64,000 nucleotides of DNA. Source: a virus. Lineage: Duplodnaviria; Caudoviricetes. Under the pieces are notes generated by a model. That model saw only the letters and a list, made by a program, of their open reading frames with translations, was not told the DNA's origin and did no database searches. The stretch covers positions 288,001 through 352,000 of the IMG/VR virus record IMGVR_UViG_3300027740_000003. One strand, 5' to 3'. Both the position numbers and the translations under genes were made by a program. Position 1 is the first letter of the stretch; each line of letters opens with the position of its first letter. This document shows positions 20,226 through 56,248 of this stretch, piece after piece.

Positions 20226-20441
20226 TTAGTGCCCTGCCATTTTTTCTAATAATACAGTTATTGCCTCGGAGGCCTGAACGTCATTCAATCCATCAAATAT
20301 CTCCGCCGCTCTTGATATGCAACTAATTGCCTCAGATATATATCCAGCCTTTGTTTCTTCTTCGGCCGCATCTGTTCTCATATACCTATCCATTAAACAG
20401 GCTAAATCCTCTGAGGCTTGTTTTATTTTATATTGAACCAT
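20226..20441 (-). CDS. Small head-module protein with helical-hairpin module
   Basis: IKQAS...ISRAAEIFDGLNDVQASEAI; tight gene coupling. Confidence 0.6.
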   Translation of the reverse strand: MVQYKIKQASEDLACLMDRYMRTDAAEEETKAGYISEAISCISRAAEIFDGLNDVQASEAITVLLEKMAGH

Positions 20442-21343
20442 TATTTCTTAATCCACTCGTTGATCTCATTCATCAAAGCAATTGCTTTCTTGTTTGTAAT
20501 CTTGCGATTCGCAAAAATATTCAGATCATTTTCGTCTTCTTCCTTCTCTTCGTCCTCATCTTCTTCTTCTTCGTCTTCATCCTCTTTTTCGTCGTCGTCT
20601 TCTTCTTTTTCTTTCTTGTCTTTCTTATCCTTCTTTTCTTCTTTATCATCGGCCGCGAAAAGCTCCGGATCATAAGCATCTATATCTATAGAATCATCTT
20701 CACTTTCTTCTGGAAGCGAATCGGTTTCTAATCCGTGAAATCCGGAAACTCTGCCACCAAGTTCATCTAAAAGCTCAGGATCTTCAAGATCTTCTTCGCC
20801 TTCAGAATCTTCATTAAGTTCCTCTTCAAATTCTCCACCAAAATCACCAAATTGTGCTTCTTTAAGAATTCCATTTAAAAGACCAAGAGCAACAGTTGCA
20901 CTCTTGTCCAATCCAAGATTATCAAGGGCCTCTGAGGTTGTTATTAAGCTATTAACTATATATTCTATAGCCTGTGCTTTTACCTTCTTGTCTACCTCTT
21001 TTTTGTCCTTCTTATCTTTATCCTTCTTATCTTTATCCTTGTCTTTTTTGTCCTTCTTGTCTTTTTTATCTTTCTTATCCTCTTTTTCTTCCTTCTTGTC
21101 TTTCTTTCCAAAAGGAGGAGCTTTCTTACCCTTCTTATCTTCTTTCTCATCCTCTTCGTCGTCTTCGTCGTCTTCATCCTTCTTTTTTGCTACTCGGATG
21201 AATGCCGAATAAGTAGGATCAGCATTAATAACCTGTGAAAAATCTTCTGGCTCAGGTTCAAAAACAGATTTAAATGCAGGATCGTTCAGGATTTTATCCA
21301 TTTCTGCTGCAACAGAATCACCAATTTTAGAATTTTTTAGCAT
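20441..21343 (-). CDS. Highly charged K/D/E low-complexity protein (scaffold- or core-like)
   Basis: KDKKDKK tracts and long D/E runs; AAGGA RBS. Confidence 0.65.
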   Translation of the reverse strand: MLKNSKIGDSVAAEMDKILNDPAFKSVFEPEPEDFSQVINADPTYSAFIRVAKKKDEDDEDDEEDEKEDKKGKKAPPFGKKDKKEEKEDKKDKKDKKDKKDKDKDKKDKDKKDKKEVDKKVKAQAIEYIVNSLITTSEALDNLGLDKSATVALGLLNGILKEAQFGDFGGEFEEELNEDSEGEEDLEDPELLDELGGRVSGFHGLETDSLPEESEDDSIDIDAYDPELFAADDKEEKKDKKDKKEKEEDDDEKEDEDEEEEDEDEEKEEDENDLNIFANRKITNKKAIALMNEINEWIKK

Positions 21344-21393: not shown

Positions 21394-24300
21394 TTAATAC
21401 TTACGTCCCGCAAATGCCTGGTCAAATGCATTCTTTAACTCATCGTCATTACTTCTTGGAGAAATATAATCAGTTGATAATGCAACAGACTCTTTAATAC
21501 CTACCTCAGGAAGAGAGGCTGTTTTGGAAGGAATCCTTCCAACTGTCTCCTGAAGATATGCAAAGTTCTCATCAGAACAATTCATAATCTTCTCGACCTG
21601 ACTGCGTAAACTACGTGGGTCCCTGGCAACTAGGCCTCTTGCAGCCATGTCATAAGCAAGTTCATATGCCCTTGCTACCTTGACTTTAAGAGCCTCTTCA
21701 TTTGCAGCTGCTTTCTTTTCAGTTGTCCCTTTAACAAGCTCACTTACCCATCTGCTAGCTTCTGGATCCTTTGCTTCTCCCCAGAACTTCTTCCAATAAG
21801 ATACCGCTGCCGCATCAAGCCCCTCAGCAATCAAACCTGGGAAATCTGTCTTTGGATCAATTGTTCCTGCAAGAACTAGTTTCTGAATCTTCTCAGCTGC
21901 TTCCCTAACCTTGCCAGGTGCTTTAGTTGCTACTTCCATTGCCTTTGTATGGACTTCTTCAAGATCCTCTACCTTGGCAAGATCACCAGTTGGCTTGGTA
22001 TCAAGGTCGGTTGTAAACCCGCCCTGAGGATGTGCTTTCGATAACATGTCAGAGAAGGTAGTTCCTTTTTGGGCAAGTTTGGTCCGTAAAATATCTCTCT
22101 CTTCTCTTGTCATATTTGCAATCCTCTTTGTTGATGCTTTTGTCTTAAGTGTCTCTGCTACCTCCGTTGGAGTACCTTCTAAATCTGCTGAACCGTCTTC
22201 GTTTACCTGTACCTTGAGATCATTGCTGTCTCCACAACCAATACAGCCTTCTTCTAATACGTTCATTAGTTCATCAAGATCGTTGCTGTCTGATGCTCTC
22301 TGACCAGCTGTTGGTCTTGGTGTAATACGTTGTCCTGCATCTGGGGCTACTGGAGGAGCCACTACTGGTGCTTTTCCAGAACCTTCTTGCAAAGAATTAG
22401 AGCCCGTTGAACCTACTGGAAGAGTTCCTGTTGGCAACCTCTGTGGTTTTTGATCAATAACATCTGGAATCTCTTGAGCAGTCTTCTTAAGATTAGTAAT
22501 AGCATTTGCATATCTAACAAATGAAACCATCATCTTGTGTCCAGCCGATTTTGCTTTCTCAATGTCTGGCGATGCGTCTACAAGAAGTTCCGTAGTCATT
22601 CTAGCAGAGCTAGCTGTTCCATCACTATTAACCTTCTCAATTAGCTTTAACTCATCAGTCATATCAGAGATTTCAGCAAGAGCTTGCTTAATTCCCTTAC
22701 GAAGACCATAACTAAGAGTCTTACGCATTGAACCAAGAGTAGTTGATGCTGTTGCTACTGGTACCTCTGGAACATCCAGATCTCCTGCCTGCTCTTCTTC
22801 ATCAAGAGCTTCAACTGCTTTTTCAAGATCAGCAGAAAGATTACCTAGTTCACGAACCTTATCTTTAACCTGATCTGCTGGAGAACCCGTCTCTCCTGTT
22901 GGCTCAAAATCACCATCCGGAGGAACCGCAGCTGCTGGATTTGCAGCAGGTGTTTCGCCTGGTCCAGGAAGTGCCGGAGCAGGAGCCTGTGCTCTCTTAA
23001 CAGAAGCATTTGCTAATACTCCCTGTGATGCAGGAACTACTGTCCCAACATCTTCAATTTCAAATGGAAGATTATATCCCTGAGCAGCAAGATCTCCCCA
23101 TTCGTCAGTAGATAATGGTCTAGTTTGACCATTTGGCATCTTTACAACGAAATCGGAAGATGTATATGCTGTTTTTACTGATGCAGTGGCGTTTATTGGT
23201 CCAAGATTAACAGCTTGCCTTGCGGTATTAACAACTGCTAATAGCTCCTGCATTTCATTAGACATAAGTATTGTTCTTGCAGTAGACAGTTCTTTATTAA
23301 TTGAAGCTGATATGTCTTTACCCTGCATAAAACTAATAACTTGTCCCCAATTTCCATTAGTGTTAGCTACCTGAACTTTATAATGCAAATTAACAAGTGT
23401 CATTAAATTTGCGGCGCGGAGTTTATCACGAAGGCCTGTGCCTGCTCTATTTGGTTGGAAAGCTCCGGGACCAGCCGACTCACCAGCATCAGAATGTCTT
23501 CCTGCATTAAAGTCGCCACCAGCATAAGGATGTTCACTAGGGCTCTGGGCACCTTTAAAAATTGCCTTGGCTGTATTCACACCCTCACTTCGGATTACAT
23601 CAATCATCTTTAGACCGTAATCTTTAGTAGCAATGCTAGAATAAAGAGAAGCAACTCTTTCCTGTCCAGCTAATTCTCCAACTGTTGCAGAGAATACTAG
23701 GCGGCTCTTGCTATCATCGCCCTTAGCATATACTTGCCACTGCGAATCAGCAAGGTTATCAGAACCATCTTCATTAGAGGCTTTAATGAACTTTGCATTC
23801 AGTTTAGCTCTATTAATAAGTTTCTTGGTTTTCTCATCGTCTCCATAAAGGCCATCAATTTTTCCGACGCTGGGGAATGGAGAAGCTCCAACCATCTGCT
23901 TATCTTCTTTATCACGAATTTTATCTGAATCTTCTTTTGGATACTTTGGCTTGCCAGGAGTTGGCTCATTAACATCCCCACCACCCTGGAAGTAAGCTTC
24001 TCGCTTCCTTTGAATATTTTGCTGAGCTTTTTCTAAAGCAGCTTGTCTGCGAAAACTTCTTGCCTCAGCCTCAGAAGCAGCCCTCAGAAGCTCTTTCTTT
24101 TTCGCTTCGTCATCACCCCAAAGACCATCAGAACCTTCCTCGGAAGTCCCGAGCATCTGCTTGTCTTGAGTATTACGAATCGAGTCAGCTTCTTCTTTTG
24201 GATATTTGACCTGACCGGGAGCTGGTTCATTTACTCCGCCACCACCCTGAAAATAAGCACTCTTCTGATTAGCCATTACTGTATCCTTTTTGTTTTTGTT

Positions 24301-25404
24301 ATTGCTCTCTTTAACAGAAGCCATTTTATTGATAAACAAATCTAATTTTTCTATCTTTTCTTTCAAAATATTTAACTCACTTGCATATCTGGCCGTATTT
24401 GCAGCCTGAGGAACATTTCCTTCTGGAACCTGCTCTCCTGAAATTTCTTTCATCTCAGGACTAACTCCCCTTTGAGCATAAGGGTCCTCTCCTACTAATA
24501 TCTCATTATTAGCTATTTGCTGTAATTCTTTTCTAATTTGTTCTGCTTCTATAATTGCAGCATCAGTTGTTATACCTGCTTCGTCCAATTTTTGCTTATC
24601 ATCATAAGCTGCAACTTTATCAGCTGCTGCAATTACTCTACGAATCTTTGCTCCAGGATCCGCTCCATTTACAACAATAGATAATTCAATTGGAGAAAGG
24701 TCTACGTTAATCTCTCCATAACCACTTTTTGATTTCATGTGTTGACAAAAATCAGACTCAACTCTGGCAACACGATGACAGCCTTTTTCAGTACATATTG
24801 CTCTACCAACAGCTACTCCCATCGAGACGTCAGCAGAATATCCACTAGCTACCTTTCTTGCTAAATCAGGATAATTCTCTTTATCCAAAGCACATAAAGC
24901 AATAATACGCTGTCTCTTGTCATCCCAGACAGTATCAACAATAACTCCACGAATATAATCTACAGAACTTGATTTATGATCTAGACAAAGGGGTTTTCCA
25001 ATCCATTTCTTGAATGCTTTTTTAAGCTCTTTTGCTGGGAAAATATCTCTATTTGCATTTTTATAACCGCCAATAGAAGAATCGTTGCAATGCCATATCC
25101 AACTTCCATCTGTAGTTTCTTCCCAACTAGATTGAACATCCTCTCCATTAGCAGTCTTTTTTAAATTCCCATCGTCATCTAGCAAAGCAGCTTCAGCTGC
25201 GTGCATCATAATACAAGTAAAATAAAGAAAACCATTTGCTTTTGGAGCAATTCTCTTTCCAGAAGCATCTACGGCTTCTTTCTTTAAGAAGGCAACTTTT
25301 TCTTTAAAATATTGAATTACTTCAGGATCTTCATCTAAAGATGATGAATCAAGAAATCTATTATTTGCAATATGTGCGCTTGCAATTTTGATAATTCTAT
25401 TCAT
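21394..25404 (-). CDS. Prohead (capsid maturation) protease fused to a long scaffold or internal-protein region
   Basis: KPLCLDH (candidate His), DVSMG (candidate Ser) and IELSIVVNGADPGAKI match HK97-type prohead protease motifs; Cys cluster follows; long helical C-terminal region with many K-x-A sites. Start set at MNRII (25404) with GGAG RBS. Confidence 0.75.
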   Translation of the reverse strand: MNRIIKIASAHIANNRFLDSSSLDEDPEVIQYFKEKVAFLKKEAVDASGKRIAPKANGFLYFTCIMMHAAEAALLDDDGNLKKTANGEDVQSSWEETTDGSWIWHCNDSSIGGYKNANRDIFPAKELKKAFKKWIGKPLCLDHKSSSVDYIRGVIVDTVWDDKRQRIIALCALDKENYPDLARKVASGYSADVSMGVAVGRAICTEKGCHRVARVESDFCQHMKSKSGYGEINVDLSPIELSIVVNGADPGAKIRRVIAAADKVAAYDDKQKLDEAGITTDAAIIEAEQIRKELQQIANNEILVGEDPYAQRGVSPEMKEISGEQVPEGNVPQAANTARYASELNILKEKIEKLDLFINKMASVKESNNKNKKDTVMANQKSAYFQGGGGVNEPAPGQVKYPKEEADSIRNTQDKQMLGTSEEGSDGLWGDDEAKKKELLRAASEAEARSFRRQAALEKAQQNIQRKREAYFQGGGDVNEPTPGKPKYPKEDSDKIRDKEDKQMVGASPFPSVGKIDGLYGDDEKTKKLINRAKLNAKFIKASNEDGSDNLADSQWQVYAKGDDSKSRLVFSATVGELAGQERVASLYSSIATKDYGLKMIDVIRSEGVNTAKAIFKGAQSPSEHPYAGGDFNAGRHSDAGESAGPGAFQPNRAGTGLRDKLRAANLMTLVNLHYKVQVANTNGNWGQVISFMQGKDISASINKELSTARTILMSNEMQELLAVVNTARQAVNLGPINATASVKTAYTSSDFVVKMPNGQTRPLSTDEWGDLAAQGYNLPFEIEDVGTVVPASQGVLANASVKRAQAPAPALPGPGETPAANPAAAVPPDGDFEPTGETGSPADQVKDKVRELGNLSADLEKAVEALDEEEQAGDLDVPEVPVATASTTLGSMRKTLSYGLRKGIKQALAEISDMTDELKLIEKVNSDGTASSARMTTELLVDASPDIEKAKSAGHKMMVSFVRYANAITNLKKTAQEIPDVIDQKPQRLPTGTLPVGSTGSNSLQEGSGKAPVVAPPVAPDAGQRITPRPTAGQRASDSNDLDELMNVLEEGCIGCGDSNDLKVQVNEDGSADLEGTPTEVAETLKTKASTKRIANMTREERDILRTKLAQKGTTFSDMLSKAHPQGGFTTDLDTKPTGDLAKVEDLEEVHTKAMEVATKAPGKVREAAEKIQKLVLAGTIDPKTDFPGLIAEGLDAAAVSYWKKFWGEAKDPEASRWVSELVKGTTEKKAAANEEALKVKVARAYELAYDMAARGLVARDPRSLRSQVEKIMNCSDENFAYLQETVGRIPSKTASLPEVGIKESVALSTDYISPRSNDDELKNAFDQAFAGRKY

Positions 25405-25517
25405 ATTACTCCAATGAACTGCCCCCACTTAAAAGTGGGACTTCCTATTGATATAATCTCAAGGCATTTTGATTCGGGTTGTTCCAACCCGAATTGGATT
25501 ATTTCTAATCCTTTTAT
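25399..25517 (-). ncRNA. Orphan TnpB omegaRNA / IS200-IS605 right-end copy with no tnpB gene
   Basis: The 103-nt segment 25415-25517 aligns with the tnpB 3' end (34955-35056): shared ATAAAAGGATTAGA, ATTCGG..GAA..CCGAAT stem, GCCTTGAGATTATATCAA and terminal AGTTCA. It also has a perfect CCCACT-TTTA-AGTGGG hairpin. Confidence 0.75.
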
Positions 25518-25539
25518 TATGTCCTATAATGCCCTGTGT

Positions 25540-25662
25540 TTACTTGTCTTTCTTCTCCTGAGCTTCTTTAATTTTCTGACGAGTTTCTTCATCATCGACA
25601 GGTTTAACATTTTCTGGCAATACGTCTATTACTTCTACTTTTCCACGTTTGATTATTGGCAT
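25540..25662 (-). CDS. 40-aa small protein below the ORF-track cutoff
   Basis: AAGGAG RBS then MPIIKRGKVEVIDVLPENVKPVDDEETRQKIKEAQEKKDK; fills the gap in the operon. Confidence 0.6.
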   Translation of the reverse strand: MPIIKRGKVEVIDVLPENVKPVDDEETRQKIKEAQEKKDK

Positions 25663-26316: not shown

Positions 26317-28005
26317 TTATAATTGCACGTAGCCGGCTGATTCAGAATTACTGGCAGCATTTGGTGATCCAGATGCTCCACTTGGTGTCATAAATGTATT
26401 TGATAACTGTCCTCCGTCATATGTTCTACCAAGTCCTACATCAGATATGCCTTTGGGTTGATGTGGAGGATTTTGCTGTTCTTTTTCTTCAAGAAGTTTC
26501 ATGAGCTTTTCTCTACGTTTCCTTCTTATTTCTGCTTTTTCTATATAACCCGGAATAAGACCAGCTGGCAAAGACTCTGCATATGGAGATCCAGGTGGCC
26601 CTCCACCAAGAAATGCATCATTCTTATCTTCTTCCATTTTCTTTTCCATTTCCTCTAAATAATCATAATACTTATCATTTTCTGTTAAATGATCTTCGGT
26701 TATTTCTTTTCTTAATTTCAGATCTGGAGTATGTTCTTTTTCTATTTTAATTCCTTTTTCAATCTGTTTTGGATCAAAAAAATGTTTTTTTGAATTATCA
26801 GATAATCCACCAGGCAACTGGTCTGCTATCTTTAATAGTCTATTTATAAACCTTCTTCTAGCAATTTTATTATTAAATAATGTTTGTTGTTTTTTCAATT
26901 CACCAATTGTATAGCTTAAACCGGGATGAAGATTTCCCGGCAATTGATTCAGTGGAAACCATTGATAATCATCATTTTCCCAATTTAATTTAATCATTGG
27001 CGCCCACCTTTCTTTTTCATTTTTTGTTATATTATAGATAAATGTTTTGTATGTAAAACCGCCATCAGAAAAGGTTGTTTCCCCTAATTTTTTTTCTATT
27101 GTTGGTAAAGATCCTAATTCTTCTCTAACTTCCTCTTCCGCAGAATTAATAAATACATTAATTTCTGGATCTGGAAGGTTCTCTTCAGAATCTGAGTAAT
27201 GATCTCCTAGTTCTTTTACAGCACCCCCCGCGACCCCCCAATTCCCACCCATATGAACATATTCAGATCTTTTTAAAAGCAATATTGTATTGTCTTCAAG
27301 ACAAATAAAAATTATTCCAGAAGCTTTCTTTCCCCAATAAGAAGCAGCCGTTTTTGGTGTTGGATATTTTTCCTTCAAAGGATCAATCCACTGATTTCCA
27401 AAACCTATATTATCCGCCCAAAATCCCCCATCAGAATTTGTTGTAGAAACCAAAGAGCCTTGACCATATCCCAAATCCTTAACAGCAGAAACAACATCAT
27501 CGGCCTGATTTGTTTCTACAGTTTCTTTTGTTTTAGGAACACAACCTAGAACACGATCCATACTAGCTTTTGCCACCGGCGATATTCCACCAGTTCCATA
27601 TCCAATATTTTTTTCGACTTCTTTAATAGTTTGACAAGGTTCGTGTCTTTTTACTTTAATCAACCATGAAGCAACAGCAAAACCAACACGATCTTTTCCA
27701 GCCCTACAATGTATCAATATAGGTCTTTGTGGTGTTCCGGGAATATAATCCATTATATTGTTGAATAATGTTGAGGCCTCTCCTGCTGGAGATCCCGGAT
27801 TAATATGAAACATCATATGGTGGAATAATCTTCTGTTCTTCCCACTCATATCGTTAATTCTCTGAGACACTCTTTTTGCAGAATCCCTGTCTAAAGACAA
27901 TATGTCTCTGATATGATAAGTTCTATAAGCATTTATTAAATCAGCAGACATTGGCTCTTCGCTGGTAAATATGCCATATTGTTGATAAGTTGTATTAATT
28001 GGCAC
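26317..28005 (-). CDS. Multidomain protein: CX5R phosphatase + NUDIX hydrolase + DUF5661-like domain
   Basis: HCRAGKDRVG P-loop; NWGVAGGAVKE...AEEEVREELG NUDIX box; KGIKIEKEHT...ITEDHLTENDKYY. Confidence 0.75.
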   Translation of the reverse strand: MPINTTYQQYGIFTSEEPMSADLINAYRTYHIRDILSLDRDSAKRVSQRINDMSGKNRRLFHHMMFHINPGSPAGEASTLFNNIMDYIPGTPQRPILIHCRAGKDRVGFAVASWLIKVKRHEPCQTIKEVEKNIGYGTGGISPVAKASMDRVLGCVPKTKETVETNQADDVVSAVKDLGYGQGSLVSTTNSDGGFWADNIGFGNQWIDPLKEKYPTPKTAASYWGKKASGIIFICLEDNTILLLKRSEYVHMGGNWGVAGGAVKELGDHYSDSEENLPDPEINVFINSAEEEVREELGSLPTIEKKLGETTFSDGGFTYKTFIYNITKNEKERWAPMIKLNWENDDYQWFPLNQLPGNLHPGLSYTIGELKKQQTLFNNKIARRRFINRLLKIADQLPGGLSDNSKKHFFDPKQIEKGIKIEKEHTPDLKLRKEITEDHLTENDKYYDYLEEMEKKMEEDKNDAFLGGGPPGSPYAESLPAGLIPGYIEKAEIRRKRREKLMKLLEEKEQQNPPHQPKGISDVGLGRTYDGGQLSNTFMTPSGASGSPNAASNSESAGYVQL

Positions 28006-33110: not shown

Positions 33111-34955
33111 TTATACCGGTGGAGCAGGTGGACCTCCTGCTGGCGGACCGCCTAAACCTCCACCCCCTCCCATCGGTGGAGGAGACGTTAATCCTCCCCC
33201 TAATCCACCACCAAGGCCTCCTCCGCCTCCTAGTCCCATATCCATTCCACCACCTAATCCCCCAGCTCCACCAGGTGGTTGAACAGCTTGATCATATGCT
33301 GTCTCTCCAGGCAACGGACTATCTATAATCTCCTGAATCTCATCATCATCACCAATGCTTCGGAGATCATTAAGCCCCATCCTTTGAAGGGCCTCCATCT
33401 CCTTGGCCTGTATAATTAACTCTATATTCTCTCTTCGAATATGCCTTACCTCTTCCTCATACTCTAGTCCAAGAGATTTATACATTGTCTGCAACGAAAC
33501 TTTCCTAGGTTCCTGTTGAATTAAATTATATAAATTCTGAATATAATCACCCATATCAAATAATGACATGTGATTCCACTCAACATCAGGAACAATAAGC
33601 CTTTTCTGTCCATCAACAATATCATAGAAATCATTCATTTTAGATATTGGAGCAAATATTTTTCTGCGCAACCATGTGCTTAACATGTTTCTGAATTGCA
33701 TATATCTCTGTCTTAATACGTCTAAAGATACCCCTCCATTCGCATACGTCACGTCTGCCCCACCATCCATAATAACCTGTGGAACCATCAGTCCTATATA
33801 AATCAACTTAATAAGCCGTTCAATATCACCAGAAATATCATAAATGCCAGCACCAAAACCAACAGGCTCAACTGATACCGCATCATGTGTAAATATCTTA
33901 AAATCCTTAGAATAACTTGCCTCTTCGAATACTTGACGCCATGGTTCAAGATCTGCCGGTGTTGGTTTGTAATTTTCTCCACCACCACCTATCTTTATTA
34001 ATGTGAGCGGGTTGATAAACTGTGAAGCCTGTACATATTTTGACTCATAAAGCTGGTCAAAAAGCATTAAAGCTCTAAAACAACTTACTGGCAATCCGGT
34101 TCCTCTTACCTCATAAGGAGCTATCCTCCTAGCAATATGAGATACATAAAAATTGCTTAAAGGAATATTTTCTCCTTTTCTAACATGTTCTATAATGCTA
34201 GGGTCGATCTGTTGTCTCTGATATAAATCAGACGGCCTATTGCCAGTTATTATCTTCCTTAAATTCTCATCCGGCCTTAAAGACATAACCGGTTCACCAG
34301 CAATTACATTGCGCCTAACATCTATAAAATCAGGATTCTGAATTGTTATTCTACTCCATTTTGCAGTATTTTGATCTAATTCTGCATAAGGAAATGCTTC
34401 ACCTAGAGTCCAATATTCTTGTGCTATTTGCGTACATACATTCATTAAATCTATTTCATCAATCATATTTTCAAAAAATGCATTAACTTTAGAATTTTTA
34501 CATTTTATATTTAATTTAGATATAGGATAGGTAGAATGTAAAGAAATAGCATTTTGAACAATAGGATTTAATGCAAAAAAACTTCTACACCAAGCATTAA
34601 TTGTTGCTTTATCTCTTGGCAGGTTTAGGTTGCTAAGCAGCCAAAGAGGAGAATAAACCTCGGGCATCATTCTATCAGTGCCACCAGAACCACGATATCC
34701 AGATCCAGTTCCTGAATTTGAATCAAATACTCCCGCAGTTTTTACCCTAGATCCAAGAACTGTTCCTAATGTTGTTTTATTAAACTCATCTGTAAAATTT
34801 CTACCTACAGGATCCCCACGAAACTTTCCCGACTCAATTTCTTCCTCTAAAACTTCTCTACGATATTGAGATACAGAACGCGCCATCCTCTCTGTAGCCT
34901 GTGGAGATACTCCTTTCTTCTTTGCTAAATATTGCTCAGAATTTGTTTTGATCAT
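33111..34955 (-). CDS. Portal protein
   Basis: Position between terminase and head genes; INAWCRSFFALNPIVQNAISLH, QEYWTLGEAFPY and YEVRGTGL resemble portal motifs of large phages; G/P-rich C-terminal tail. Confidence 0.7.
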   Translation of the reverse strand: MIKTNSEQYLAKKKGVSPQATERMARSVSQYRREVLEEEIESGKFRGDPVGRNFTDEFNKTTLGTVLGSRVKTAGVFDSNSGTGSGYRGSGGTDRMMPEVYSPLWLLSNLNLPRDKATINAWCRSFFALNPIVQNAISLHSTYPISKLNIKCKNSKVNAFFENMIDEIDLMNVCTQIAQEYWTLGEAFPYAELDQNTAKWSRITIQNPDFIDVRRNVIAGEPVMSLRPDENLRKIITGNRPSDLYQRQQIDPSIIEHVRKGENIPLSNFYVSHIARRIAPYEVRGTGLPVSCFRALMLFDQLYESKYVQASQFINPLTLIKIGGGGENYKPTPADLEPWRQVFEEASYSKDFKIFTHDAVSVEPVGFGAGIYDISGDIERLIKLIYIGLMVPQVIMDGGADVTYANGGVSLDVLRQRYMQFRNMLSTWLRRKIFAPISKMNDFYDIVDGQKRLIVPDVEWNHMSLFDMGDYIQNLYNLIQQEPRKVSLQTMYKSLGLEYEEEVRHIRRENIELIIQAKEMEALQRMGLNDLRSIGDDDEIQEIIDSPLPGETAYDQAVQPPGGAGGLGGGMDMGLGGGGGLGGGLGGGLTSPPPMGGGGGLGGPPAGGPPAPPV

Positions 34956-35056
34956 GAACTATCCTTTGTTTTAAAACATAGATTACCTTTTGATATAATC
35001 TCAAGGCTTTTTAATTCGGACAATTCCTGACCGAATACTGTCTCTAATCCTTTTAT
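34939..35056 (-). ncRNA. Cognate omegaRNA overlapping the tnpB 3' end; guide would be the first bases of the portal gene
   Basis: Established TnpB architecture; ATTCGG/CCGAAT stem; homology to the copy at 25415-25517 fixes the scaffold end at AGTTCA. Confidence 0.7.
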
Positions 35057-36130
35057 CAATATATTCTTAGCTGCGTTTATATCTCTATCATGCAATGTTC
35101 CACATGTGGAACATTGCCATTCCCTATCAGAAAGAGATAACTCTTGATGAATCTTTCCACAAACATGACATCTCTTTGAACTTGGTTCAAATCGATTGAT
35201 TTGAACCAATGTTCTTCCATACCATTTTGCTTTATATTTCATCATTGCAACAAATTTGCTCCAAGAAACATCTCCGATGTTTCTTGACATTACTGAAGGA
35301 GATTTCTCCAAAAGAGATTTTACATTAAGATCTTCTAAACATATTACGTGGTTATTGTTAATAATATTAGAAGATAATTTATGTAAGAAATCATCTCTTT
35401 TATTGCAAATCTTTTCATGTAATAAAGCAATTCTTAGTTTTAGTTTGTTATAATTATTTGATCCTTTTATTTTGTTAGATAATAATTGTTGTAATCTTTC
35501 TAAATGTTTTAGTTCTTTATTATAGAATTTAGGATTATCTATTTTAGAACCATCAGAAAAAGTAGTAAAAGTTTTTATACCTAAATCTATTCCTATATAA
35601 TTTGGACCTAAAGTCTTTTCAGGAAGTTTATTTCCGTCCTCAACTAGAATAGAAATGAAATATTTATCAGTAGGTGTTTTAGAGACAGTACAAGTTTTAA
35701 TTTTTCCCTCAAATCTTCTATCAATTCTTGCTGCAATATTTTTAATTTTTGGCAATTTAATAATGTCTTTTGAGAAATTTACTTTAACTCCTTGAGGAAT
35801 TGAATAAGATTGTTTTAAATATTTATTTTTAAATCTAGGGAAAGAAGTTCTTTTCTCAAAAAATCCTTTATAAGCCCAACACATATGTCCAACCTCTTGT
35901 TGAAGAGCTTGCGATGAAACATCATATAACCAACTATATTCATTTTTAAGATCTTTTAAAAATCCAGAAATAATATCAAAACATGATAGGTTAATTTTAT
36001 TTTTATTATAAGTTTCTCGCTTGGCTTCTAAAGTTTTATTATAAACAAATCTACAACAACCAAAAGTCTTCGCAAAGAAAACTTTTTGTTCTTTAGTAGG
36101 ATAAAGTCTATATTTATAAGATTTTAACAT
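34952..36130 (-). CDS. tnpB: TnpB RNA-guided endonuclease (IS200/IS605 family, IS1341-like)
   Basis: KSYKYRLYPTKEQ...FGCCRFVYN N-terminus; RuvC residues intact (IGIDLG, CLEDL, DRDINAAKNI); CxxC...CxxC zinc ribbon. Confidence 0.93.
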   Translation of the reverse strand: MLKSYKYRLYPTKEQKVFFAKTFGCCRFVYNKTLEAKRETYNKNKINLSCFDIISGFLKDLKNEYSWLYDVSSQALQQEVGHMCWAYKGFFEKRTSFPRFKNKYLKQSYSIPQGVKVNFSKDIIKLPKIKNIAARIDRRFEGKIKTCTVSKTPTDKYFISILVEDGNKLPEKTLGPNYIGIDLGIKTFTTFSDGSKIDNPKFYNKELKHLERLQQLLSNKIKGSNNYNKLKLRIALLHEKICNKRDDFLHKLSSNIINNNHVICLEDLNVKSLLEKSPSVMSRNIGDVSWSKFVAMMKYKAKWYGRTLVQINRFEPSSKRCHVCGKIHQELSLSDREWQCSTCGTLHDRDINAAKNILIKGLETVFGQELSELKSLEIISKGNLCFKTKDSS

Positions 36131-36204
36131 TTTTTAAATTTTTACCAATTTATAGAAATATACAAAAATATTAATTATATAAATTTTGCACTTGGGGTTG
36201 ATCA
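34955..36204 (-). mobile_element. tnpB-only IS200/IS605-type element inserted at the portal start codon
   Basis: Bounded by two copies of ATGATCAA on the minus strand (36198-36205 and 34948-34955); ends in TAGTTCA; no tnpA in the window. Confidence 0.7.
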
Positions 36205-36233
36205 TAATTATATGCCTCAATATCTATATAACA

Positions 36234-38108
36234 TCACCTGAACGGACAATAACCGACAATTGCAGGAATTTTCTCCGGCCCTCTCTTGTCAAATGGTCCT
36301 TTCTTATTATCAGAAAATCCTCCTGATACCCAGAATTTATATGCCAAATAAGCATTAACCAAAGCCATCATGCCGTCATTTGGCGTAGATCCTTTAATAA
36401 ATCTCCTAACAGGCTCGTTTACCACGTTAAATGTAGTTTTTACTTCCATTGAAGCACAATGGTCTATTAACCAAGATATCTTGTCATATCCAGAATTTTC
36501 CCCTCTAGCTCCACCCAATGGAAATCTTATTAACCCACGTTTCATTACATTAAATACTTCTTCAATATAATATTCTCTTTCTGCTTTTATTAAATGAGGA
36601 AATGAATCTGTATATAATTTAGCTTTACCAGTTAATTTCCCTGCAAGTTCACAACCAAGGAACCTGTCTCCATATTCTCTCTGCAAATCTTCTGTAAGTT
36701 CATGGGCAAATCCAATATCTCCTATGGCCTGGACTATACTGTATTTCCTCATAACTTCATGAATATAATTTCTTTTATATTCATTGTCATTTTTTTTAAC
36801 AATTCCAGCATAATCAATAACTAATCTTCCAGGACCGTCTTCTCTTAAAACAACACAAGTAGAATAAGATTGACCACCTGCTCTTCTTGCCTCTTCTTTC
36901 CCAACCTGATCTTCATCAGATCTCTTTCCCCAGTCAAATCCGGCAAATACTTTTGCTTCCTCAGACCTTGGTATAGTTGCCCGCATACATCTCTTCGAAT
37001 CTCCACATTTTTCAATAATTTCTTCTTTTGAAATCGGACCCATATCACCAGTATAAAATTCTCCCAAAACCTCATTCATATAAGCCCGCTCCGTGTTAAC
37101 AAGGCTTTTTTCCGGTTTTTCATCATCCATTGCTTCTCTGGTAAATCGAGGATTATAAAGCTGATTAATGTGATACCCAATCATAGAAACGTTAGGATCG
37201 TCATCGTCTCTGGTTCCTATCCATTTGCCCCTTTCTGCTGCTTCTCTTTTATCTTGAATATGATTGCATTCTGGACACTGAACCATAAATCCATAAATCC
37301 ATATCTTTTCCCAATCATTGCTTCCTGGTGTATAAAGTGGAAAATGTTTGCCACAATTTTCACAACCAAGATAATAATATTTCTGACTAGACTCTGTCCA
37401 CATTTTATAATAATGAGAGCTTTTGCTTCTTGGGGTACCAAAATAAACCTGTACTCCTTTTGTTGGCTTTCCATATTGAGCCTGAGTACACATCTTATTT
37501 ATATTCGCAATGGCAGTCTGCATGATTGACTGAATCTCATCAAAAAGAATAATATCAACGGTACCACCCATCAACCTGTCCCCATCAATTCCAGTAGACT
37601 CAATACGAACGAAATTACCACCTTCAAATTGTTTATACTGCAACGAATTATTTGTTGGAGACGTCTTGTCTAATTTGGATTCAATAATAGAAATAGACCT
37701 AGATCCTTTGGTTAAACCAGAAGGAATAGATCCTTTAATCATTGAATTGAATTTGGTTTTTGCATATAAATGAACGTGAACCAATGTTGGGAACAAATGA
37801 ATAACTCTTACTGGTGGCTTTCCTCCCCGGCCAAATATACCAGATGCCATAAAATAAAGTTCAAGTGCCGCGGCCATGGTTGTTGCTCCAACCTGCCGTC
37901 CCTTGACCAATATAATAGGTTTTGAATTAGCGCTTAGGGCACTTATGCCTATCTGCCTATAGATGTCTGCAAATGGCTTGTAGCCGTTCCCATGCACTCT
38001 GAATGGAAATCCGTCTAATGTAAGGTTCTGTTCACAGAACATAACAGGGTCTACACTTGAAATCCCTGATTTTAATTGTTCGAATACATTTATTTCTTTT
38101 TGTTGCAT
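36234..38108 (-). CDS. terL: Terminase large subunit
   Basis: KGRQVGATT Walker A, LFDEIQ Walker B, FGTP motif III, CxxC...CxxC, and AGFDWG nuclease Asp. Confidence 0.9.
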   Translation of the reverse strand: MQQKEINVFEQLKSGISSVDPVMFCEQNLTLDGFPFRVHGNGYKPFADIYRQIGISALSANSKPIILVKGRQVGATTMAAALELYFMASGIFGRGGKPPVRVIHLFPTLVHVHLYAKTKFNSMIKGSIPSGLTKGSRSISIIESKLDKTSPTNNSLQYKQFEGGNFVRIESTGIDGDRLMGGTVDIILFDEIQSIMQTAIANINKMCTQAQYGKPTKGVQVYFGTPRSKSSHYYKMWTESSQKYYYLGCENCGKHFPLYTPGSNDWEKIWIYGFMVQCPECNHIQDKREAAERGKWIGTRDDDDPNVSMIGYHINQLYNPRFTREAMDDEKPEKSLVNTERAYMNEVLGEFYTGDMGPISKEEIIEKCGDSKRCMRATIPRSEEAKVFAGFDWGKRSDEDQVGKEEARRAGGQSYSTCVVLREDGPGRLVIDYAGIVKKNDNEYKRNYIHEVMRKYSIVQAIGDIGFAHELTEDLQREYGDRFLGCELAGKLTGKAKLYTDSFPHLIKAEREYYIEEVFNVMKRGLIRFPLGGARGENSGYDKISWLIDHCASMEVKTTFNVVNEPVRRFIKGSTPNDGMMALVNAYLAYKFWVSGGFSDNKKGPFDKRGPEKIPAIVGYCPFR

Positions 38109-52505: not shown

Positions 52506-53081
52506 TTATTCAATGATATCCTTTATCATCATATTGTCTAGTATCTCTTGTTCAAATTCTTTCCAATCAGGACATAATGCTATTACGGCTATATTATATC
52601 CAGATTGTTCTATTGCAGTTTTTTGAAGTTCTTTTGAAGGGTTCTTTATAAATTGAACAGAATTTCCGTTCTGTTTAACTGCTTCTAATTGTACTTCTTC
52701 GGGAGGATTCTTTATAAATCGAATAGAATTTCCATTTTGTTTAACCGCTAATAATTGCATTTCCTTTGAAGGGTTCTTTATAAGTTGAATAGAATATCCA
52801 TATTGTTTAACTGCTTCTAATTTTATTTCTTTAGAAGGGTTCTTTATATATTGAATAGAATTTCCATTTTGTCTAACTGCTTCTAATTTAGCTTCTTCTG
52901 AAGGATTCTTTATATATTGAATAGAATATGCATTTCGTTTAACCGTTAATAATTGCATTTCCTTTGAAGGATTTTTTATATATTGAATAAAATATACGTT
53001 TTGTTTAATTGCCTTTAAACAACCTGCTTCATTTTCAGGATCAAAACCAATAACTTTTATAATTTCCTTTTTAAGATCCAT
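52506..53081 (-). CDS. 22-aa helical repeat protein (DUF4116-like) with C-terminal IKDIIE
   Basis: Six repeats of type NGNSIQYIKNPSEEVQLEAVKQ; start set at MDLKK. Confidence 0.75.
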   Translation of the reverse strand: MDLKKEIIKVIGFDPENEAGCLKAIKQNVYFIQYIKNPSKEMQLLTVKRNAYSIQYIKNPSEEAKLEAVRQNGNSIQYIKNPSKEIKLEAVKQYGYSIQLIKNPSKEMQLLAVKQNGNSIRFIKNPPEEVQLEAVKQNGNSVQFIKNPSKELQKTAIEQSGYNIAVIALCPDWKEFEQEILDNMMIKDIIE

Positions 53082-53878
53082 TTTACTCTTTACTTCCGCC
53101 AAGGTTCAGTCTTAGCATTTGAGCAATGGGAGGAGGAAGATGCGTCATCTCCACGCCACAAGGGCACATGATAGCTCCATTCCTTGCTATAGACGGTTTC
53201 ACGGTCTGCCCACACCGTTGGCACTGCACAGTGAAAGCTTTGTTTACAGGCCTGTTATGAGCCGTTTGGCCCATTGATTTCATCGACACCTTCATGAAAT
53301 GAGTGACGCCTTTTATTACCTTGCCACATGAGCCACAAATTACCTCATTAGTTGCTGTATTTAAAAGGTGTTCCCCCGATTCAAAGCAACCCTTGTTATC
53401 ACACGTTATTAAGATTCCCATGTTTTTCTCCTACATAATATATATCAGAAATTTTATTCGATTATATCCTTTATTATCATGTTGTCTAAAATTTCTTCAG
53501 CAAATTCTTCCCAATCTGGACATAACATTATTATTTTAATATCATATTTAGATTGTTCTATTGCTAATTTTTGAACTTCTTTAGAAGAATTCCTTATAAA
53601 TCTAATAGAATTTCCGTTCTGTTTAACTGCTTCTAATTGTACTTCTTCGGGAGGGTTCTTTATAAAAAAAACAGAATCTCCTCTTTGTCTAACAGCTGCT
53701 AATTGTACTTCTTTAGAAGGATTTTTTATATATTGAATAGAAAGCGCATATTGTTTAACTGCTTCTAATTTTATTTCTTTAGAAGGGTTCTTTATATATT
53801 GAATAGAATTTCCATTTTGTCTAACTGCTTCTAATTTAGCTTCTTCTGAAGGATTCTTTATATATTGAATAGAATATG
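52799..53878. repeat. 132-nt identical direct repeat (52799-52930 and 53747-53878)
   Basis: Manual alignment; extends a further 14 nt after one mismatch. Confidence 0.85.
53083..53421 (-). CDS. Double zinc-ribbon protein
   Basis: CDNKGC, CGSC, CQRC, CPC; AGGAG RBS. Confidence 0.7.
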   Translation of the reverse strand: MGILITCDNKGCFESGEHLLNTATNEVICGSCGKVIKGVTHFMKVSMKSMGQTAHNRPVNKAFTVQCQRCGQTVKPSIARNGAIMCPCGVEMTHLPPPIAQMLRLNLGGSKE

Positions 53879-54041
53879 TATTTCGTTTAACCGCTTCTAA
53901 TTGCATTTCCTTTGAAAGATTTTTTATATATTGAACACAATTACCATTTCGATTAATAGCTTCAAAACAAGATAATTCATTATCAGGATCAAATCCTATA
54001 ATTTTTATATACAATTTTTTCAATTTATCTTTAGCTAACAT
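53454..54041 (-). CDS. Second 22-aa repeat protein (DUF4116-like) with C-terminal IKDIIE
   Basis: Paralog of 52506-53081 with six repeats and the same termini. Confidence 0.75.
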   Translation of the reverse strand: MLAKDKLKKLYIKIIGFDPDNELSCFEAINRNGNCVQYIKNLSKEMQLEAVKRNTYSIQYIKNPSEEAKLEAVRQNGNSIQYIKNPSKEIKLEAVKQYALSIQYIKNPSKEVQLAAVRQRGDSVFFIKNPPEEVQLEAVKQNGNSIRFIRNSSKEVQKLAIEQSKYDIKIIMLCPDWEEFAEEILDNMIIKDIIE

Positions 54042-55011
54042 TGTTTTCTTTTTCTAATAGTTCAATCAATTTAGAACAATCATCTGGATAATTTACATTT
54101 ATATTAAATATATGGCTGTTTTGATTGCCAGGCCCATATCCTTTCATTCCCATTTTTGTTCCATTTTTAGTCCCGGGATGAATCTTTAAAACTCTCTCTC
54201 CTTTAATTGTTTTTACCTTAACAGACTTTCCTTTTAAAGCTTCCAACAAAGAAATACTAATATTGGTCTCAATATTTTCCCCATCATCATCTAATCGCAT
54301 ATCCGGATCTTCCTCGACATGAACCAATACCTTTAAAGGACCATAATGATCTTGGTATCTTCCATTAATAAATCCCTGTGATGATCCTAGATAATTTCCT
54401 GCGCCATCAGCTGCAACAACAAACTTGTCTCGTAATGGGAAAGGAAGTTCAAAATCAATTGATACAGATTGTTTAACAGACCCGCCTCCATTACATTTAT
54501 CACAATCTATATTTTCTTTACCAGATCCTCCGCAGAAATTGCATACAATCATTTGTTGCATATTTCCTCTTTGGAATATTTTTCCTCCTTTACCATCACA
54601 ATGTGTACATTTGTTATTTCCTTTATGGTTTCCTTGCCCATTACAAGCGCTGCACTTTACATATTTATCATATGACACAGATCTCTTTGCCCCAACCATT
54701 GCTTCTATAAAAGTAAGACTAACTTCAACAACAGGATCTGGATATCTCTTTGGCCCACGGCTTTGATGAAACGAAGATATATTAATAAAATCTGCTATAT
54801 CTACCGGAAATCCGCCAAAATTACGTTCTGGTCTAGGATTTTCTAGAGTGGTTTTGGCTTCATTTATTTTTTTAAACTTCGCTTCTGCATCTGGAGATTT
54901 GTTTTTATCCGGATGCCATTCTTTTGCAAGTCTACGAAATGCTTGATTAATATCCTCCTTGCTTGCGCCGGGGGAAATACCAAGTTCTGAATATGCTTCT
55001 TCTGGTGTCAT
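54031..55011 (-). CDS. dnaJ: DnaJ chaperone
   Basis: J domain with HPD; four CxxCxGxG repeats; C-terminal domain. Confidence 0.92.
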   Translation of the reverse strand: MTPEEAYSELGISPGASKEDINQAFRRLAKEWHPDKNKSPDAEAKFKKINEAKTTLENPRPERNFGGFPVDIADFINISSFHQSRGPKRYPDPVVEVSLTFIEAMVGAKRSVSYDKYVKCSACNGQGNHKGNNKCTHCDGKGGKIFQRGNMQQMIVCNFCGGSGKENIDCDKCNGGGSVKQSVSIDFELPFPLRDKFVVAADGAGNYLGSSQGFINGRYQDHYGPLKVLVHVEEDPDMRLDDDGENIETNISISLLEALKGKSVKVKTIKGERVLKIHPGTKNGTKMGMKGYGPGNQNSHIFNINVNYPDDCSKLIELLEKENNVS

Positions 55012-55012
55012 A

Positions 55013-55679
55013 TTACCAATTGCCCTTCATCCAATTCTTTAAACTCCATATTTTTCCAGTTTTATGATCTACTACATTATCATCTTTTTCTCGATATGTT
55101 CTAACTTTATCTCCACGCATTCCAGAACCAACTTGGTTCTTCCTATTAGCGTTTCTATTATTAACTAATTCTTCTTTTTTTATAGCTTCTATTTTTTGAG
55201 ACAAAATAGCCAATGCTAATCTTTTACTCTGATATTGAGACTTTTCGTCTATTTTAACAGATATGCCTGTTGGAATATGTGTAGCAACAATACAACTATT
55301 TGTTGTATTTCTGTGTTGACCTCCAGGACCAGAACCTCGCTGATCTCTAATATCTATTTGGGACATATCAAGATTATTGATATTAAACTCTAATGGTTCC
55401 AAAACAGCCACAGTTATTGTTGATGTGTGAATTCTTCCTTTTTTATCTGTTGGAGAGCTTCTTTGGAACCTATGCCCTCCTGATTCATTTTTAAATATTT
55501 CTTTTACATTATTGCCAGAAAACAAAACAGATATAAAACCAGATTTTTTATCTAATAAAGAATAGTCAAAGACGCTCCCGCACTGCAACTTTCACATATA
55601 CTCCAAGCATATCTTCAACTAAGAGTTTTGCATCATCTCCGCCTTCTGCTGCTTTTATTTCTATTACTATCGATTGCAT
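55013..55679 (-). CDS. Class I peptide chain release factor lacking domain 1, expressed via +1 frameshift (about 221 aa)
   Basis: AGGAG RBS, then ATG 55679 MQSIVIEIKAAEGGDDAKLL...VRERL ending CTT TGA. The +1 frame continues DYSLL...ESGGHRFQRSSPTDKKGRIHTS...GSGPGGQHRN. Confidence 0.85.
55565..55580 (-). promoter_or_regulatory. RF2-type programmed +1 frameshift site
   Basis: CGG GAG CGT CTT TGA C: SD-like GGGAG three bases before CTT-TGA-C, the geometry of bacterial prfB (AGG GGG TAT CTT TGA C). Confidence 0.85.
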
Positions 55680-55693
55680 ATTGGTCTCCTACC

Positions 55694-55909
55694 TTATTCT
55701 ATTATATCCTTTATCATCAGATCAATTTCAGACAATTTTTCAAAACAACCATCGTTAACCAATACGCGAAAATATTCAATATCTCTTAGATGTCTAACAT
55801 AATTAAATTCTCTAAATTTATATTCAAACTCATAAAATCTACCAAAATTTGTTAGTTTATACAATATACCTTGATGAAAAGGTATGAAAAAACATATTAT
55901 TAACATCAC
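55694..55909 (-). CDS. Small hypothetical protein ending in IKDIIE
   Basis: 71 aa; ends IDLMIKDIIE. Confidence 0.55.
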   Translation of the reverse strand: MMLIICFFIPFHQGILYKLTNFGRFYEFEYKFREFNYVRHLRDIEYFRVLVNDGCFEKLSEIDLMIKDIIE

Positions 55910-55945
55910 AACAACACTTTTGTTTGCATAAATAATATTCTGGCT

Positions 55946-56248
55946 TCACTCAATAATATCCTTTATCATCAAGTTATCTAATATCTCTTGTTCAAATTCT
56001 TCATCAAAATTTTGCCAATCTGGGCACATAAAAACAACCCAACAATCATATTTACTTTCTCTAATTAATGATTTTTGAAAATTAATTGACGGATTTTTAA
56101 TTCCCATACCCCTACCACCTATATATGTGCTAGTAATAGAAATTCCATAAACATTTTTCTTTTTTAAACGATCTTCATAAGTAGATTCTGCCCAAGTCTT
56201 ACATAATTTGTTTTTTACCACTTGTTTTAGTTTTTCTGACATTTCCAA
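55946..56248 (-). CDS. Small protein with one repeat unit and the IKDIIE tail
   Basis: IKNPSINFQK...CPDWQNF...ILDNLMIKDIIE. Confidence 0.65.
   Translation of the reverse strand: MEMSEKLKQVVKNKLCKTWAESTYEDRLKKKNVYGISITSTYIGGRGMGIKNPSINFQKSLIRESKYDCWVVFMCPDWQNFDEEFEQEILDNLMIKDIIE

Follow-up and report, generated by a model that had tools for sequence, protein, structure and literature searches.

A tnpB-less element in the head-gene operon

We analysed a stretch of 64,000 nt (the window; G000:288001-352000) from a 435,004-bp IMG/VR virus record, IMGVR_UViG_3300027740_000003, that CheckV rates as complete. Coordinates given without a prefix are those of the window. Here we describe orphan 1, a 103-nt element on the minus strand (25415-25517, ATAAAAGG...GGCAGTTCA) that is homologous to the 3' end of a tnpB gene and resembles the right-end/omegaRNA scaffold of such a gene. 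All genes near orphan 1 lie on the minus strand in a long co-directional head operon. They are arranged in the order terminase large subunit (36234-38108, Pfam GpA_ATPase), tnpB, portal (33111-34955, PHROG portal match at 8e-53), several large genes, a 210-aa (amino acid) open reading frame (ORF), a 40-aa ORF, a gap of 134 nt in which orphan 1 is found, and a gene of 1336 aa (21394-25404).

Orphan 1 is in sense orientation and sits 2 nt 5' of the GGAG ribosome-binding site (RBS) of the 1336-aa gene. Its last six bases, AGTTCA (25415-25420), are directly followed by TTGGAGTAATATG, with the RBS at 25409-25412 and the ATG at 25402-25404, and the RBS motif TTGGAG is kept at this gene in relatives. 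A preliminary description of the sequence had called orphan 1 the leader of a prohead protease gene. The RBS and the start codon are indeed found where it had placed them, whereas the label fits only the N-terminal domain of the protein: residues ~117-313 match head-maturation-protease PHROGs (phrog_18299, 6e-11, residues 128-227; also phrog_4523), and the remainder does not. For brevity, we refer to it as the protease gene.

In tnpB-only (IS1341-type) elements of the IS200/IS605 group, such as that of ISDra2 TnpB, the right end yields an omegaRNA, also termed reRNA (Karvelis 2021 and Altae-Tran 2021, as cited in PMC11437467). When comparing orphan 1 to the 3' end of the resident tnpB, our repeat finder paired 25429-25494 with 34971-35036 at 76% identity, and MAFFT gave 78% identity. 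Folding to the minimum free energy (MFE) predicts, from the 5' end, hairpin H1 (GGATTA-GAAA-TAATCC, 25496-25511), which is perfect and contains an AATAAT hexamer resembling a -10 box, and hairpin H2 (25472-25494), a perfect 10-bp stem of ATTCGGGTTG and CAACCCGAAT with a GAA loop. These are followed by a middle hairpin (CCTTGA-GATTATA-TCAAxAGG, 25444-25464) within a core of 34 nt that shares 93-94% identity with the resident copy, and by the subterminal right-end hairpin H3 (CCCACT-TTTA-AGTGGG, 25424-25439). H1 is found only in orphan 1 and in a second copy, orphan 2; the resident copy reads GGATTAGAGACAGT at this position and forms no hairpin. All copies share the terminal AGTTCA, where the similarity ends, and which marks both the right-end boundary and the junction of scaffold and guide. 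Beyond it, the guide-equivalent flank of orphan 1, TTGGAGTAATATGAATAGAA (25395-25414), spans the native RBS and start codon. The unit common to orphans 1 and 2 extends to 25521, that is, CATA plus the 103 nt.

The preliminary description had claimed a tnpB-less 103-nt homologue of the tnpB 3' end, a central stem that is perfect in the orphan and imperfect in the tnpB copy, and a terminal hairpin that is kept despite sequence change. All three claims hold: the motifs are present on the minus strand as described, H2 contrasts with the stem ATTCGGTCAG/TTGTCCGAAT of the resident copy, and the terminal hairpin could be followed through 22 sequences.

The resident tnpB and its cis scaffold

The 435-kb genome contains a single tnpB (34952-36130, minus strand, 392 aa), identified with Pfam and PHROG between the terminase and portal genes and 9.5 kb from orphan 1. 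Its product matches OrfB_IS605 (1e-26), Cas12f1-like_TNB (2e-24) and HTH_OrfB_IS605 (5e-21). In an alignment of 31 sequences that includes it, D182, E266, D350 and two CxxC pairs are invariant. These are the RuvC and zinc-finger residues, and the nuclease thus looks intact. The nearest homologues are ~60% identical and mostly come from large phage contigs, and the sole relative found in a scan of GTDB genomes is a Bacillus protein of 37% identity. At the loci of 79 portal relatives, tnpB is not present.

The cis omegaRNA scaffold, or right end, of the resident element lies wholly within the tnpB ORF (34955-35059, minus strand). It has weaker stems than orphan 1 (MFE z-score of -2.1), including the imperfect stem given above, and its terminal hairpin reads TGTTT-TA-AAACA. 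This right end provides the RBS of the portal gene and overlaps the portal ATG, and its guide-equivalent flank, TGATCAAAACAAATTCTGAG (34935-34954), lies at the portal gene start. The left junction (36184-36208, minus strand) consists of ATTA, which is of the type of a transposon-associated motif (TAM), TGATCAA, CCCCAA and the left-end box GTGCAAAA, after which no left-end hairpin is found. TGATCA(A) brackets the element on the minus strand (34948-34960 and 36198-36208), as ATTA-TGATCAA-CCCCAA-GTGCAAAA ... AGTTCA-TGATCAA, and the left end is 5-6 nt longer than those of relatives, as if the first target bases were duplicated. An IS200/IS605 insertion is expected to leave no bracketing repeat.

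A fold supported by covariation

The tnpB 3' ends of relatives hold the same module; all of them end in (T/C)AGTTCA, and similarity stops directly after it. In one relative on a 463-kb contig (L113:3156-3175), the right end continues into an inverted repeat of its AGTTCA (TAGTTCA-C-TGAACTA). RNAalifold recovered H2, the middle hairpin and H3 from six copies, with compensatory changes in 8 of 23 pairs. For instance, the seventh pair of H2 is G-C, C-G or U-A among relatives.

From the six copies we built a covariance model, R1. A genome-wide scan with such a model had been proposed in the preliminary description, and it yielded exactly three matches in the 435-kb genome, scoring 119.9, 115 (orphan 1) and 93 bits (the resident cis scaffold). 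As R1 matches only these three places, the similarity of the orphan to tnpB is far beyond chance. Across 86 TnpB loci of relatives, R1 matched at tnpB 3' ends only. In the 22 aligned R1 matches, an alignment that is fitted to the model and thus favours the structure, 93.8% of the cells are paired compared to 76% in shuffles, and none of 500 shuffles reached 93.8%. Both sides have changed in 20 of the 23 pairs, and slid controls reach at most 52%; the covariation of H3 is strong. Chance similarity was rejected as an explanation on the grounds of model scores, boundaries and covariation. No Rfam 15 family reached its gathering threshold anywhere in the window.

The orphans fold better than the copies linked to tnpB. 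Their MFE z-scores are -4.76 and -5.50 for orphans 1 and 2 and -4.22 for a third orphan, L205, compared to -2.1 to -3.2 for five tnpB-linked copies. H2 is paired in 10 of 10 positions in the orphans and 9 of 10 in relatives, and pairs worse in the resident copy. Furthermore, orphans 1 and 2 share with the resident copy the 34-nt core and a ATAAAAGGATTAGA segment, which L113, L115 and L118 lack. These lineage-specific features make it plausible that the orphans are cognate to the resident TnpB. By its sequence, orphan 1 is the right-end/omegaRNA module of this family, with a predicted fold that is supported by covariation.

Empty alleles and a matching target

TnpB, the ancestor of Cas12, retains its own transposon by cutting empty sites. 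We found 19 homologous protease loci in IMG/VR, and the module is present in none of them. In the relatives, AATTTGGAG...ATG comes immediately after a small ORF. The corresponding 40-aa ORF in the window (25540-25662, minus strand) lies upstream of orphan 1, and its homologues directly precede the protease gene in L010, L011, L012, L016, L017, L110 and L207.

Finding relatives with an empty site had also been suggested in the preliminary description, and we found two, L207 and a groundwater-metagenome contig of run X3 from another study. L207 (91% aa identity) has CAATTA in place of the 103 nt, with 22 identical nt to the left of it and 35 to the right, such that empty alleles read ...GGACATA-CAATTA-TTGGAGTAATATG... 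The X3 contig has the same joint; it skips 25416-25517 and has five other letters between. These two alleles delimit orphan 1 as 25415-25517, with the CATA on its left being native flank.

To predict the TAM, we used the left ends of relatives. TTA occurs 7-8 nt 5' of the left-end box in all seven full-length relatives, of which six are independent (TTTA in four, CTTA in two and GTTA in one), compared to a background of 4.9% per locus for TTA at that offset. In the closely related pair L115 and L120, similarity starts exactly at TTA. Among further left junctions, two loci fit the TTA spacing and one is spaced differently. A more stringent automatic detector of left ends missed true cases and picked up false ones, and our estimate is not based on it. 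The pattern points to NTTA as the TAM.

In the empty allele of L207, ATTA lies directly 5' of a 20/20 match to TTGGAGTAATATGAATAGAA. The nearest portal relative, L031, has an empty site as well, in which ATTA is followed by the 20 nt of the resident guide with one mismatch. Since ATTA precedes the guide match in both L207 and L031, the protease and the portal sites both have the layout that TnpB would need for cutting element-free alleles, by a mechanism as in PMC10055086. When the guides were compared to the genome of the phage itself, none matched anywhere but at its own flank, apart from a 15/16 match of the orphan 1 guide at G000:76138. This match (G000:76122-76138, minus strand) falls on the RBS and start (TGGAGTAATATGAAT) of a small, lipoprotein-like gene that is unrelated, and it is probably a coincidence as there is no TTA beside it.

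Missing left end and promoter signals

The left end of full-length relatives consists of the box (G/C)TGCAAG, an H3-like hairpin and ATGAAT; this two-ended arrangement is the classic IS200/IS605 layout. At orphan 1, we found no left-end box, no left-end hairpin and no ATGAAT. Its left junction also lacks a TAM, as CAATTA is deleted, and no tnpB overlaps it or lies beside it, the left flank being native phage sequence. A search of the 435-kb genome for Y1 TnpA (PF01797) gave no match, while positive controls matched. None of the three modules in this genome (orphans 1 and 2 and the resident copy) appears to be one that TnpA could mobilise. The preliminary description had offered a non-autonomous right-end remnant as one reading, and this is well supported by the tnpB 3'-end homology bounded by AGTTCA, the lack of an adjacent tnpB and of a left end, and the natural empty alleles. 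We conclude from this pattern that orphan 1 represents the final 103 nt of a tnpB-only element of the IS200/IS605 type, a complete predicted right-end scaffold without its gene.

The site of orphan 1, upstream of the protease gene, is a hotspot of homing elements. In relatives it is occupied by a Hint/LAGLIDADG gene in L110 (L110:2267-3010) and L014/L015 (L014:1724-2884), and by an HNH gene in L021/L023 (L021:2307-2990).

A promoter-like motif upstream of orphan 1 had been noted in the preliminary description. AGGACA-16-AATAAT is a weak match to the sigma-70 consensus, at 9 of 12 positions, and the region has eight such sites where 7.2 are expected; such matches thus occur at chance frequency. 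Orphan 2 has a 10/12 match, TTGCCA-16-AATAAT, at the same internal position. A candidate for a phage-specific promoter motif, GGCATWWTA, shows no enrichment. An intrinsic terminator for the sense operon was rejected, as no T-run follows the hairpins of orphan 1 on the sense strand.

Further orphans

Orphan 2 lies outside the window, 81 kb from orphan 1, on the plus strand (G000:394954-395061 = L002:1501-1608). It is 95% identical to orphan 1 and shares CATA and ATAAAAGG...GGCAGTTCA with it, and the sequence differs on either side. Four of the five differing sites fall within H3, where pairing is kept, with one double change from C-G to U-A. The orphan 2 unit thereby includes 4 nt (CATA) of the flank of the orphan 1 site, possibly ~15 nt at lower identity. 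A Cys-rich ORF of 75 aa ends inside orphan 2, which contributes its final 12 codons and stop codon; on the strand of the neighbouring genes, H2 of orphan 2 resembles an intrinsic terminator. Its 95-aa neighbour has no match in five related huge-phage records; the only homologue, 48% identical, lies on a contig with a different gene order.

The third orphan (L205:1501-1599, minus strand) is a tnpB-less scaffold in G004, a phage contig of 54.5 kb, 18.6 kb from the tnpB of that contig. It ends in ...GGCATGGGTAGTTCA, has perfect H2 and middle stems and keeps the three-hairpin layout, while its stem sequences are entirely different. Its H3 resembles that of L118 and not that of the resident copy of its own contig. 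In INPHARED phages, blastn gave no match to either a 2-kb query or the 151-nt element, and an exact scan of IMG/VR for an 18-nt core found nothing outside the own genome.

Other features of the region

Some features of the region lie apart from the orphan. Just downstream of the protease gene, a 300-aa ORF (20441-21343, minus strand) consists largely of K/E/D-rich repeats with a period of 9 nt and may encode a scaffold-like protein. At 52506-56080 (minus strand) lie paralogous genes of ~195 aa with 3' ends that are 81-90% identical (repeat families D1, D8 and D10). L207 has ~560 nt extra at about position 26818, inside a 562-aa NUDIX/phosphatase-like gene (26317-28005), which our phage does not have and which is possibly another mobile insert.

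Interpretation and alternatives

We propose with moderate confidence that orphan 1 is a deletion-derived, tnpB-less guide module that may be used in trans for homing or exclusion. According to this proposal, a full element would have inserted at ATTA|TTGGAG, immediately 5' of the protease RBS, and a later deletion from CAATTA into the tnpB 3' region would have taken the TAM, the left end and the tnpB ORF. This would leave an RNA module of four hairpins, still adjacent to the original flank derived from the target. This module would be transcribed along with the co-directional head operon, and the orphan RNA would be excised and loaded in trans by the single TnpB of the phage, whose catalytic residues are conserved. 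Nety et al. are said to have found in 2023 that TnpB processes its own transcript into omegaRNA. As the guide TTGGAGTAATATGAATAGAA matches element-free alleles of related phages adjoining an ATTA TAM, TnpB could, during co-infection, cut the rival allele, ATTA plus TTGGAGTAATATG..., at an essential head gene. The rival would then either acquire the module through repair from the carrier genome (homing) or lose its genome altogether (exclusion). The use in trans of omegaRNAs from protein-less elements is an accepted idea (PMC10055086, discussion). A trans-acting omegaRNA had already been suggested for orphan 1, and the layout of TAM and target in natural empty alleles strengthens this suggestion, which we consider plausible.

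Several observations weigh against this proposal. A second copy with an identical left edge exists elsewhere in the genome, although the unit has no left end. Orphan 2 runs antisense to the small ORFs around it and leads no gene, and its empty site was not found, its 257-aa neighbour having no relatives in IMG/VR; its 'guide' may thus be arbitrary. The scaffold of orphan 1 differs from the resident cis copy by 22-24%, and its compatibility with the resident TnpB is assumed. The TAM is one that we infer from the left ends and flanks of relatives. Identity between the carrier and L207 is 0.90-0.94 near the site compared to a background of ~0.87, without a clear peak, and as it is not clearly raised there is no signature of co-conversion. 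Lastly, orphans were found in only two of the ten virus records searched with the covariance model.

The scarcity of orphans would also fit an inert relic, that is, the functionless leftover of a deleted tnpB insertion that is too young to have decayed and whose second copy arose by accidental duplication. The missing left end, left-junction TAM and adjacent tnpB, together with a genome that contains no TnpA, agree with such a relic. However, the stems of the orphans are perfect and better than those of tnpB-linked copies, the few differences between orphans 1 and 2 fall in H3 with pairing kept, and the L205 orphan retains its three-hairpin layout despite entirely different stem sequences. The gain of a new, perfect GNRA-capped hairpin (H1) would also not be expected of a relic. 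We consider this explanation rather unlikely.

The position of orphan 1, sense and 2 nt 5' of the RBS in a long co-directional head operon, might alternatively indicate a domesticated cis-acting leader of the protease mRNA. Such a leader could affect processing, stability or translation, and TnpB bound over the RBS and start could repress the gene. The guide-equivalent segment spans the RBS and ATG, and the resident right end likewise supplies the portal RBS and overlaps the portal ATG. Close relatives, on the other hand, express the same gene without the insert, orphan 2 leads no gene, and the sense strand shows no terminator-like run of T after the hairpins, which makes a leader function improbable. 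Even less probable is a non-autonomous transposon that a Y1 TnpA, provided by the host or by another element, mobilises as one unit. It would resemble a miniature inverted-repeat transposable element (MITE) or a palindrome-associated transposable element (PATE); PATEs are protein-less IS200/IS605 derivatives whose omegaRNAs are necessarily used in trans (PMC10055086). Such a transposon could account for two copies that are 95% identical, share their edges and lie at unrelated loci, and H3 resembles the TnpA-bound hairpins at both ends of full-length relatives. Orphan 1 has neither left-end hairpin nor left-end box, though, its left junction lacks the TAM as CAATTA is deleted instead of being kept, the phage has no Y1 transposase, and the four bases CATA at the left edge of the shared unit belong to the native flank of the first site.

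If orphan 1 is a guide module used in trans, a wider system is possible, which we put forward tentatively. One nuclease gene and dispersed, independently evolving guide-RNA genes could form an array-less multi-guide TnpB system that acts as an RNA-programmed gene drive or in exclusion against sister phages without these guides. Each guide would be tied to an essential head gene at a conserved position, namely the portal start or the protease start. On this view, the orphans would have adapted to existence as free guide genes by perfecting their stems, gaining a new 5' hairpin with a -10-like box and losing the self-TAM.

Comparison with known systems

When comparing orphan 1 to IS1341-type elements, we find that the scaffold likewise overlaps the 3' end of tnpB and does not extend past the right-end boundary, and that the guide corresponds to flanking DNA. 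Furthermore, a TAM adjoins the guide match in the empty allele, and the relatives have similar left and right subterminal hairpins (restorative homing by TnpB is described in PMC10055086). In contrast to these elements, orphan 1 has no tnpB, no left end and no TAM beside it. The nuclease gene lies 9.5 kb off, in its own immobilised element with a hairpin-less left end, and the host is a 435-kb phage without TnpA. PATEs are protein-less as well, keep the omegaRNA scaffold, occur in more than one copy and would need a TnpB encoded elsewhere. However, they keep both ends and are mobilised by TnpA, whereas the orphan consists of the right end only, has no TAM junction and appears to be derived by deletion.

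Free-standing homing endonuclease genes of phages (HNH, LAGLIDADG; PMC10448857) occupy the same intergenic hotspot in relatives, and the predicted target of orphan 1 is similarly a conserved essential gene start in element-free relatives. Here, specificity would come from a 103-nt RNA gene, with the nuclease shared and encoded elsewhere. TldR and Cas12-type loci (PMC10705468, PMC10691335) also have a guide-RNA locus that is uncoupled from the gene of the TnpB-family protein. Unlike them, the TnpB of our phage keeps its RuvC residues, and the guides are fixed flanks without a spacer array, repeats or adaptation genes.

Thus, a guide scaffold that is detached from its gene and from the transposon ends nevertheless faces a perfectly matching, TAM-flanked target in a sister phage. 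If our interpretation is true, phages would be using a 103-nt cargo for RNA-guided homing or exclusion at structural genes that are essential, in a hotspot at which relatives have protein homing endonucleases. It would document a step in the separation of guide genes from the nuclease gene and provide a compact, testable set of TnpB, omegaRNA and TAM (NTTA). The multi-guide system, if true, would be a natural intermediate between transposon-bound TnpB and Cas12-type loci. TnpB omegaRNA right ends are known, and what appears to be new here is a solo, right-end-only and putatively deletion-derived omegaRNA scaffold in a huge phage.

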